DNA of 10,026 bases from a virus. Shown here piece by piece: positions 1,132-2,542 of the stretch (its first letter is position 1; each line of letters opens with the position of its first letter). A program made the position numbers and the translations under genes. Below the pieces are notes generated by a model that saw only the letters and a list, made by a program, of their open reading frames with translations, was not told the DNA's origin and searched no databases. The stretch lies in UHGV virus genome UHGV-2165603; one strand, given 5' to 3'.

Positions 1132-1158
1132 AAAAAAAAGGCCGCGCCATGCGCAGCC
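1132..1158 (-). terminator. Strong rho-independent terminator between the Q-S moron and the lysis genes (tR'-like position)
   Basis: Minus-strand RNA GGCUGCGC-AUG-GCGCGGCC (8-bp GC-rich stem, one G-U pair) followed by eight U residues (plus-strand A-tract 1132-1139). Confidence 0.6.
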
Positions 1159-1588
1159 AGAACTCACAAGGAAAATGATAGAAGGAAATAACATTAGTGA
1201 TGTACGCATGGCGCCTCCCGCTAAGTTCTGCAATGATCAAACAGAACTCGCTACGTGCCCTTAAAACTCGATCATTTAGCCCCTCCAAGGAGGATTCACC
1301 ATGCGGTTGGTTTTTTAATAAACAGTAAACAAAAAAGTCAAGAATTATTCATTCTGTTCTTTCATCATCGGCCACAGCAATACCACAATGCCGCAGACCA
1401 GAGCGCCATCAGTCAGTACCAACATTATCCTGCTGGTGAAATCCATCATCACCATCACTAAAAGCAGGATCACAACAGCAAGCAGACACAGTTTATAAAA
1501 CAATGTTCAGAAAACGCATTCAGCATGCCTAAGGTTCTATTCCTACGAATAGCCAACTTGCAACTTAAAATATTATTTATGCAGCCAA

Positions 1589-2347
1589 TTAAATTCTGGT
1601 CCTTACAATATCAACCTGAAGATTCTTATCTTGTGCTGATTGATAAATGACAAACCTTTTACTACCTGCATTGAAAGAAGTAGACAAAACCAGACAATTA
1701 TCATAACGAGCAAGAACATAATACCAACCATCATTATAATTAATCATTTCATATTCTTTCTTAAACTGCGGTTTGTAATATCCTGTCAGAAATGAAAAAA
1801 GCCAGAAATATGCCACAAAAGCAATCATCACAATCTCAAAAAAATGTTTTTTTATAAATGGCTTATCATAGAAGCATGATACCGATAAAAATCGCCCATA
1901 AGATCTTATCGAAATTGTAACCGCCAGCGCAATCGCTGCTGACAGTAGCAAAAGAGGTACCTGAATCTTCTGTCTCAATATAGAAAACTCAATAATTGCC
2001 GGCACAAACAATAATTCCACAGCAAAATAAAGGCGAAATACATTTAGCTCTTGCATAGAATGTTTTCTTTTCACTGCGAAAAAGAATACAACACCAATAC
2101 CCCAACCGATAAGAAATATAGCAATGACGATAACTGCAAAAAATAAACTTCTGGCAACATCATCAACACCTGCACCTACAATCCACCATGGGAAGCCGTA
2201 GTAAAAAGAAGTACCCCATCCATAGAAATAAGCACTCCCCCATCCAAGGCATCCCATGTAGGCAATAAAAAGTGAAGAACTCCTGAGCAGCGCACCATCC
2301 TTCATAACCACCCCAATACAAGATGATAACATTGGCTTACAACTCAT
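1589..2347 (-). CDS. Polytopic inner-membrane protein of unknown function, AT-rich moron between Q/pR' and the lysis cassette
   Basis: 252-aa ORF with ATG at 2345-2347 and stop TAA at 1589-1591. About 5-6 long hydrophobic, aromatic-rich segments and a ~55-aa hydrophilic C-terminus. Noticeably lower G+C than the flanking Q and S genes. A better SD (GGGGTGG) precedes the internal Met15 at 2303-2305, so the true start may be 2305. Confidence 0.65.
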   Translation of the reverse strand: MSCKPMLSSCIGVVMKDGALLRSSSLFIAYMGCLGWGSAYFYGWGTSFYYGFPWWIVGAGVDDVARSLFFAVIVIAIFLIGWGIGVVFFFAVKRKHSMQELNVFRLYFAVELLFVPAIIEFSILRQKIQVPLLLLSAAIALAVTISIRSYGRFLSVSCFYDKPFIKKHFFEIVMIAFVAYFWLFSFLTGYYKPQFKKEYEMINYNDGWYYVLARYDNCLVLSTSFNAGSKRFVIYQSAQDKNLQVDIVRTRI

Positions 2348-2506
2348 AACAAAAGCAATTCAATGCCGTCAAGAGGTTACAGGCTAAAAAAACTCTATTA
2401 CATTGCAGTCAGCATGTTTACTACACAAATACAATTCAGAGCATAAAAACTACTCGGCGGCAGGTTATTGAGACTCATCAATGACATGTAAAAAACGCCC
2501 ATTATT

Positions 2507-2542
2507 GGTGTCAAGTTTCCCCAAAGTTATTCAAAAAGTCAA
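2507..2542 (-). promoter_or_regulatory. pR'-like late promoter (Q-dependent antitermination site region)
   Basis: Just downstream of the Q stop, the minus strand reads TTGACT (2537-2542), a 17-bp spacer, then GAAACT (2514-2519). The sequence from the Q stop through the -35 element closely parallels the lambda pR' region as recalled and diverges after the -10 region. Confidence 0.55.

Follow-up and report, generated by a model that had tools for sequence, protein, structure and literature searches.

A proposed moron ending in the small RNA gene PasD1 lies between a lambda-type late promoter and the lysis genes of a lambdoid prophage

The minus strand of UHGV virus genome UHGV-2165603, analysed here as one stretch of 10,026 nucleotides (nt) that is referred to as the window, encodes the late-regulatory part of a lambdoid prophage, with nin-region genes, a PP1-type phosphatase gene and the antiterminator gene Q, followed by a pR'-like late promoter and the lysis genes S and R. 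In lambdoid phages, the term moron denotes an added gene that has a promoter and a terminator of its own and is expressed from the prophage. The interval between the lambda-type Q/pR' module and the lysis genes is proposed to be such a self-contained cargo unit, which would consist, in this order, of a putative sigma-70 promoter region (2372-2323), an open reading frame (ORF) for a membrane protein of 238 amino acids (aa), a gene for a DUF3927/TciB-like peptide, and the gene of the small RNA (sRNA) PasD1 with its terminator (1158-1132). RNA sequencing (RNA-seq) of the near-identical prophage PP4 of enteropathogenic Escherichia coli (EPEC) E2348/69 indicates that the unit is transcribed in the lysogen without Q, and comparison of leaders indicates that the promoter-proximal terminator tR' has decayed in the lineage linked to a lambda-type Q. 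The favoured explanation, to which a probability of about 0.55 is assigned, is that the unit is transcribed from its own promoter with at most a minor share from pR'. All features lie on the minus strand unless marked (+).

Expression of the unit in uninduced lysogens

Expression values were taken from published RNA-seq of uninduced E2348/69 cultures and are given as DESeq2 base means in activating/non-activating medium. The window is 99.7% identical to PP4 over 1651 nt, and the mapping of coordinates was checked on E2348C_1012, which is annotated at 1059259-1059975 and falls exactly on the moron ORF at 2305-1589. This ORF has a base mean of 147/90 in PP4, against 6.0/1.35 for the lambda-type Q and 5.4/1.2 for S, which places it 25- to 70-fold above both genes and on a par with ordinary housekeeping genes of the published table. 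R (3.9/0.6) is likewise silent, and RusA of the same prophage reaches only 0.36/0.34. Spontaneous induction is excluded as the source of the moron RNA, since Q, S and R all stay silent. The initial annotation had suggested that the moron is expressed independently of Q in the lysogen from pR', with transcription stopping short of the lysis genes. A transcript covering the moron in uninduced cells and an end of transcription before S are both borne out by these counts, whereas pR' is probably not the main source of this transcript. A second copy of the unit in the same strain, in prophage PP2, is accompanied by a Q82-type Q (69/43) and gives base means of 226/120 for the moron ORF, 37/27 for DUF3927 and 3.5/1.1 for S. 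Full-text literature searches on E2348C_1012, E2348C_0686 and EcOnc13 returned nothing, and the supplements of the TRS paper contain no usable E2348/69 coordinates of mapped transcript ends, 5' or 3'.

Terminators were sought on the minus strand from 2600 to 1050 with a scan for hairpins followed by a T-tract, scored by a discriminant d of the d'Aubenton-Carafa type, and RNA folds were scored as z against shuffled sequence. The site at 1132-1158, which had been described as the first convincing terminator and as the end of the moron, is the sole strong site in this range (d=+62, z=-2.96; no other d>0), and a terminator prediction across 1100-2550 of this strand likewise reported only the stem at 1158-1140 with its T8. 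By sequence identity, however, this is the terminator of a known sRNA and not merely that of the moron: positions 1304-1132 match PasD1 of E2348/69 at 173 of 173 positions, an Hfq-dependent sRNA of 173 nt that is encoded in PP4 (NC_011601 1060260-1060432; Pearl Mizrahi et al. 2021, Table S6). The stem (1158-1140) is followed by U8 (1139-1132) and immediately preceded by the predicted seed UGUGAG (within 1171-1160). PasD1 meets its targets on Hfq, has been validated by Northern blot and is abundant in uninduced EPEC (Pearl Mizrahi et al. 2021). The base means of PasD1 (8652/502) and of its PP2 counterpart PasD2 (11017/1476) are in keeping with this, and since its level is about 60 times that of the moron ORF, PasD1 is more than just the tail of an RNA from pR'.

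The window RNA agrees with PasD1/PasD2 of EPEC, known as EcOnc13 in enterohaemorrhagic E. coli (EHEC) and related to Salmonella STnc100, in its identical sequence, its 3' stem-loop with U8 and its UGUGAG seed. Relative to EPEC PasD1, the RNA itself is without difference, and what would be new is a possible second role as the first terminator for pR' transcripts. A relation of STnc100 to PasD1 and PasD2 of EPEC, both of which adjoin Q and LpxR genes, has been proposed (Storz laboratory preprint of 2026, bioRxiv 10.64898/2026.05.13.724894). The Rfam model STnc100 (RF02076) gives a full-length match at 1334-1129 that is below threshold, at 37.5 bits against a gathering cut-off of 47, with E=4.5e-6 over a 2-kb search and 8.9e-7 over 401 nt. 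A small ORF over PasD, recorded as a membrane protein in the phage 434 entry, was considered and judged to be non-coding, as its frame is not kept in E. albertii or in an Escherichia sp. locus (L092).

A known parallel is StxS, an Hfq-binding sRNA that is processed from the pR'-tR' transcript of Shiga toxin (Stx) phages and forms the 3' end of a 247-nt non-coding RNA (PMC7547250). Like PasD1, StxS is made in lysogens, and it is bounded by the first terminator after a constitutive, Q-antiterminated late promoter (PMC7547250). The window differs in that about 1.2 kb with two ORFs lie between pR' and the sRNA, and in that PasD is also known from loci where a separate tR' precedes it and from loci with other first ORFs, such as that of phage Evi, which makes it most likely that PasD is independent of pR'.

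Decay of tR' in the leader

The Q gene (2585-3208; Pfam Antiterm PF03589, E=4e-58) is of the lambda type, and 202 of 207 residues of its product (98%) are identical to lambda Q. The pR'/qut region that follows (2496-2542) aligns with those of lambda, mEp234 (HK97-like), the P22-like phage Emek and phage 2B8, with homology spanning the Q stop codon to about +10, and the equivalent site is labelled promoter/qut in the records of related phages. On this alignment, the pR'-like promoter is a true homologue of lambda pR'/qut and no chance match to consensus. It is composed of a -35 element TTGACT (2542-2537), a 17-nt spacer and a -10 element GAAACT (2519-2514), followed by a -35-like TTGACA (2514-2509) and a -10-like pause element AATAAT (2506-2501) with U6 next to it, and the start of transcription (+1) is put at 2506. 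The -10 element matches consensus at three of six positions and has a T to G change at its first position relative to the lambda counterpart, TAAATT. The promoter is presumably active with GAAACT as its -10, but because this element is degenerate, constitutive activity like that of lambda pR' can only be assumed. The sequence separating pR' from the stop codon of Q includes a perfect 6-bp hairpin, TTGCCA-CGGA-TGGCAA (2557-2574), that does not vary across lambda, P22-like phages, HK97-like phages and the window.

Compared with the pR'-qut-tR' module of lambda, which yields 6S RNA and has counterparts in P22, 82 and 21, the window shares the near-identical Q, the homologous -35, Q-binding region and sigma-dependent pause elements, and downstream lysis genes that are silent without Q. 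It differs in the -10 element and in lacking a tR' within a few hundred nt, such that the first canonical terminator belongs to an sRNA gene and ends at +1375, with its stem starting at +1349. The absence of a hairpin with a U-tract between pR' and the moron, as initially reported, was confirmed by the scan, which found no site with d>0 from 2506 to 1158. An intrinsic tR' shortly past pR', as expected of a lambda-type module, was therefore found neither by the discriminant scan nor by the folds, whereas the controls were positive: lambda tR' scored d=+28, a second lambda terminator +17, and the two annotated terminators of phage 434 +42 (tR') and +66. The two T-tract regions of the leader fold no better than shuffled sequence (z=+0.57 for +1 to +62 and z=-0.40 for 2445-2386), whereas real terminators reach z=-2.96 (PasD1), -3.45 (434 tR'), -4.70 (Emek tR') and -5.42 (lambda tR').

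The first of these regions contains a degenerate remnant of tR', CCTGCCGCCGAGTAG followed by T5 (2464-2445, +43 to +62), which is homologous to a strong terminator in leaders linked to a Q82-type Q. The homology is seen in an alignment with 434, O157 and O55. The remnant scores d=-14 against +32 to +47 for the Q82-linked versions, with the stem broken and the U-tract shortened; the value of -14 comes from the version of the scan that allows non-canonical closing pairs, and the version without them leads to the same conclusions. Leader classes were drawn from 80 collected loci encoding an identical moron ORF. The Q82-linked leaders (434, O157, O55, PP2, E. albertii and about 34 IMG/VR loci) all possess a terminator, with d ranging from +15 to +47. 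Its form is CC(C)GCTGCCGAGTGG(G) with T7-9, located about 105 nt upstream of the ORF, and its d is +32 to +47 except in E. albertii (+15). Among the leaders linked to a lambda-type Q (window, 2B8, PP4 and about 50 IMG/VR loci), no variant has a positive d. Close relatives have their tR' some 50-60 nt past pR', at about 57 nt in P22- and HK97-like phages with a lambda-type Q. In two such phages that lack the cargo, Emek (P22-like) and mEp234, a strong hairpin is followed by a U-tract whose end is near +58, and the T5 of the window lies at nearly the same distance, at +58 to +62. The window therefore carries a decayed tR' and not a layout that never had one.

The second region holds a weak terminator candidate, t2, in which a long, AU-rich and imperfect hairpin (2441-2393) precedes T7 (2392-2386). 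With d=-3.4 and dG -7.3, it ranks fifth among the 401 T-rich sites on the strand, and weak, partial termination across 2441-2386 is possible. The same site forms the upstream border of the conserved block of the moron that is described below. Rho-dependent termination in the leader is not favoured, because the RNA is G-rich relative to C, with 29 C and 45 G in 201 nt and a C/G ratio below 1 in every 78-nt window.

Unmodified polymerase from pR' would meet no canonical stop before the terminator of PasD1, which would then double as tR' and give an RNA of about 1,375 nt. Upon induction, Q-modified polymerase would, following the lambda paradigm, pass the PasD1 terminator and a second terminator-like hairpin with a T-rich tail that the scan places upstream of S (789-761), and continue into S and R, and these two sites may keep S and R off until Q is made. 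A contribution of pR' to moron and PasD1 transcription in the lysogen is conceivable, although its share would probably be minor.

The promoter of the unit and competing explanations

Conservation in the leader is by far the highest over about 85 nt directly upstream of the ATG at 2305, which contain a promoter-like block (2372-2323), identified by a promoter scan and by conservation. The block comprises TTGACG (2372-2367) and TTGTTA (2352-2347), an 18-nt spacer and an extended -10 element, TGTTATCAT (2331-2323). Neither TTGACGGCATTGAATTGCTTTTGTTATGA nor ATGTTATCATCTTGT varies among the window, 434, E. albertii (whose protein is 97% identical) and Escherichia sp. MOD1-EC7003 (94%), and substitutions within the block are confined to the 18-nt spacer between TTGTTA and TGTTATCAT. 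Invariant hexamers with a variable spacer are the pattern that would be expected of a promoter. In the Escherichia sp. locus, homology begins at the T-tract bordering the block, there is no Q within 2.4 kb, and the upstream neighbours are a small multidrug resistance (SMR) transporter and an esterase (alpha/beta hydrolase); as block and unit are kept there without Q nearby, the unit evidently persists without any pR'. The start of the moron ORF is probably the ATG at 2305, giving 238 aa, and not that at 2347, because the frame upstream of 2305 has an in-frame TAA in L092, and this agrees with the annotation of E2348C_1012.

The proposal that the moron is read specifically from pR' finds some support in the leader. 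If pR' were constitutive in the absence of tR', an RNA of about 1,375 nt (2506-1132) would be the main moron mRNA of the lysogen and possibly the precursor of PasD1. Such a transcript would be compatible with a leader that has no canonical terminator and a composition that disfavours a Rho site, with conserved pR' elements next to a Q that is nearly that of lambda, and with the excess of moron RNA over Q and S in uninduced cells, and constitutive pR' RNA is made in lysogens of lambda, 21, 82, P22 and Stx phages (PMC7547250). The proposal nevertheless appears unlikely. The conserved block travels with the moron to a locus without Q, the -10 of pR' has lost the first T of its lambda counterpart, and the ORF is only moderately expressed, far below PasD1. 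Moreover, the PP2 copy of the ORF, which lies behind a strong terminator (d=+32), is reported at an equal or higher level than that of PP4 (226/120 vs 147/90), a comparison that is suggestive and not decisive, since only 3 of 756 positions distinguish the two ORFs and the counts may not separate the copies. The PP4 leader (NC_011601 1059058-1059258) departs from that of PP2 at about 20 positions over the part common to both, which begins at ~1059105. A bolder form of the same idea is that loss of tR' turned pR' into a lysogenic promoter for a 1.4-kb mRNA of two membrane proteins whose 3' end is processed to PasD1, which would make PasD1 the counterpart of StxS and of lambda 6S RNA and its terminator the site at which Q acts; this is regarded as improbable.

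It is equally doubtful that pR' RNAs are kept short by weak, non-canonical termination or by rapid decay in the leader, at 2464-2445 and/or 2441-2386, with the moron expressed solely from its own promoter. The T5 and T7 tracts do lie where relatives terminate, the former at the position of the P22-like U-tract, and t2 is the best-scoring site on the strand that is not a terminator. In E. albertii, t2 is strengthened by two changes from wobble to Watson-Crick pairs (d=+1.0), and two loci, L048 and L059, show one compensatory change, from C-G to U-A, in the long leader hairpin. Against this stand folds that are at chance level for both sites, hairpin bases rich in AU and GU pairs, a stem at the first site that is 6 nt away from its U-tract, and two disruptive changes in the t2 stem of Q82-linked leaders. 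Covariation in the long hairpin was also rejected as support, as the other changes in L048 and L059 break neighbouring pairs and the middle stem.

Transcription from the unit's own promoter, with pR' contributing little, thus accounts best for the observations, although several points weigh against it. Promoter-like matches are no commoner in the window than in shuffled sequences (15 vs 21.9 expected), so that conservation is what carries the promoter call, and the 18-nt spacing of the best candidate is imperfect. No mapped transcription start site for the unit was found in the publications consulted. The spacing of a candidate promoter for PasD1 is also imperfect, and PasD1 could be a processed 3' fragment and not a primary transcript. 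The PP2 comparison carries the mapping ambiguity given above. With other lambdoid morons, the unit shares its insertion between genes that are adjacent in relatives, its deviant GC content, its closing terminator and its expression in the lysogen; it differs in also holding an sRNA gene and in having a promoter that is recognized by conservation.

The choice of promoter determines what the arrangement would mean. If pR' reads into the cargo, lysogenic-conversion genes would be driven by a promoter that is normally credited with no more than a short by-product RNA in lysogens. The same promoter would also feed PasD1, which pairs with virulence mRNAs in EPEC and EHEC, and versions with and without tR' would differ in how they couple the state of the prophage to regulation of the host. 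Should the unit's own promoter dominate, the unit is an ordinary moron, and the new element is only that a lambdoid late operon manages without a proximal tR' by way of the terminator of a cargo sRNA.

Composition, spread and neighbours of the unit

The 238-aa product of the moron ORF is a polytopic membrane protein with about five hydrophobic segments and a polar C-terminus of about 60 aa. It matches phrog_1521 (E=1.7e-154) but no Pfam or NCBIfam family and no named PHROG family. The second ORF (1503-1345) encodes a 52-aa DUF3927 membrane peptide (Pfam PF13064, 53 bits vs a cut-off of 25) that also matches phrog_1470, annotated as 'TciB-like'; TciB was not accepted as a characterised function of phage 434, as the name comes from phage P1 and the role is purely putative. 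With a GC content of 0.335-0.395, the unit lies below Q and the lysis genes (about 0.50), in keeping with separate acquisition. Lambda, mEp234 and Emek proceed from Q/pR' straight to S without cargo ORFs.

The cargo is present in phage 434, phage 2B8 and 1,360 of 5,426 complete E. coli genomes. Its junction with a lambda-type Q occurs in 570 of these genomes, with at least 99% identity in 560, as well as in the isolated phage 2B8, and is therefore a common and stable arrangement. In 434, O157:H7, O55:H7 and PP2 of E2348/69, all with a Q82-type Q, the cargo is likewise placed between Q and S, and its membrane ORF, DUF3927 and PasD (terminator included) share 98-99% identity with those of the window, whereas a strong terminator insulates the cargo from its own pR' at the site that has decayed in the window. 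All parts of the system are of known kinds, namely the lambda Q/pR' module, a moron, PasD1 (EcOnc13 in EHEC), a DUF3927/TciB-like peptide and a convergent Esr41-like sRNA. No description was found of a lambda-type late promoter without a proximal tR' in about 10% of complete E. coli genomes, and the terminator of a cargo sRNA in place of tR' in those genomes is a modest variant and no new kind of system. In phage Evi (L093), a DUF3927 gene and a PasD-like region lie behind a third type of Q and a different first ORF (143 aa), and the DUF3927-PasD pair appears to be a mobile sub-module.

Most Q82-linked copies keep a sialate esterase gene that is deleted in the window. The full 1.85-kb gene follows PasD in 434, 2B8 and PP2 of E2348/69, where its base mean is 102/16, and it is likewise deleted in PP4. 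In the window, approximately the first 25 nt of this SASA/NanS-p gene remain as a 5' remnant (1021-1045), homology to 434 stops at 1021, and the deletion brings PasD1 close to the holin gene. The lysis genes comprise an S21-type pinholin (723-508; Pfam PF04971, E=1.4e-32) and a signal-anchor-release (SAR) endolysin, R (508-11, from the ORF list), which are the Q-dependent lysis targets. Immediately upstream of Q, on the opposite strand, the Q82-linked prophages PP2 and 434 carry lpxR, which encodes a lipid A deacylase; the gene is highly expressed in uninduced EPEC, with a base mean of 2936/89 in PP2, and none is annotated in PP4.

An Esr41-like sRNA gene (863-952 (+)) is convergent to the late operon and ends in a strong terminator of its own, GCCAGCGCAGA...TCTGCGCTGGC with T6. 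The match to the Rfam family Esr41 (RF02676) is a resemblance only, at 32.3 bits against a gathering cut-off of 102 (E=0.001). This RNA is the one that has been counted as the antisense ORF 'E2348C_1013', with a base mean of 2064 and a 7.5-fold lower level in an hfq mutant; it behaves as an sRNA in RIL-seq, in which interacting RNAs are ligated and sequenced, and its 3' part maps to window 910-951. Its identification as PasA was ruled out by alignment. The 132-aa 'hypothetical protein' WP_012578864 of RefSeq (866-1264 (+)) is antisense to PasD1 and overlaps both sRNA genes, and is probably no real gene.

No tRNA genes are present in the window, in contrast to Stx phages. A region with HNH/AP2-like ORFs (4444-5280) contains an assembly gap of 10 N (4828-4837). 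Within the nin region, a 590-aa ORF on the opposite strand (5769-7541 (+)) has a Ser/Thr-rich N-terminus, matches PHROG 9230 but no Pfam or NCBIfam family, and has the looks of a second cargo gene. Just upstream of this ORF lies a perfect hexanucleotide repeat, possibly with a role in phase variation or regulation, of 9.8 copies of AAATAG (5394-5452).

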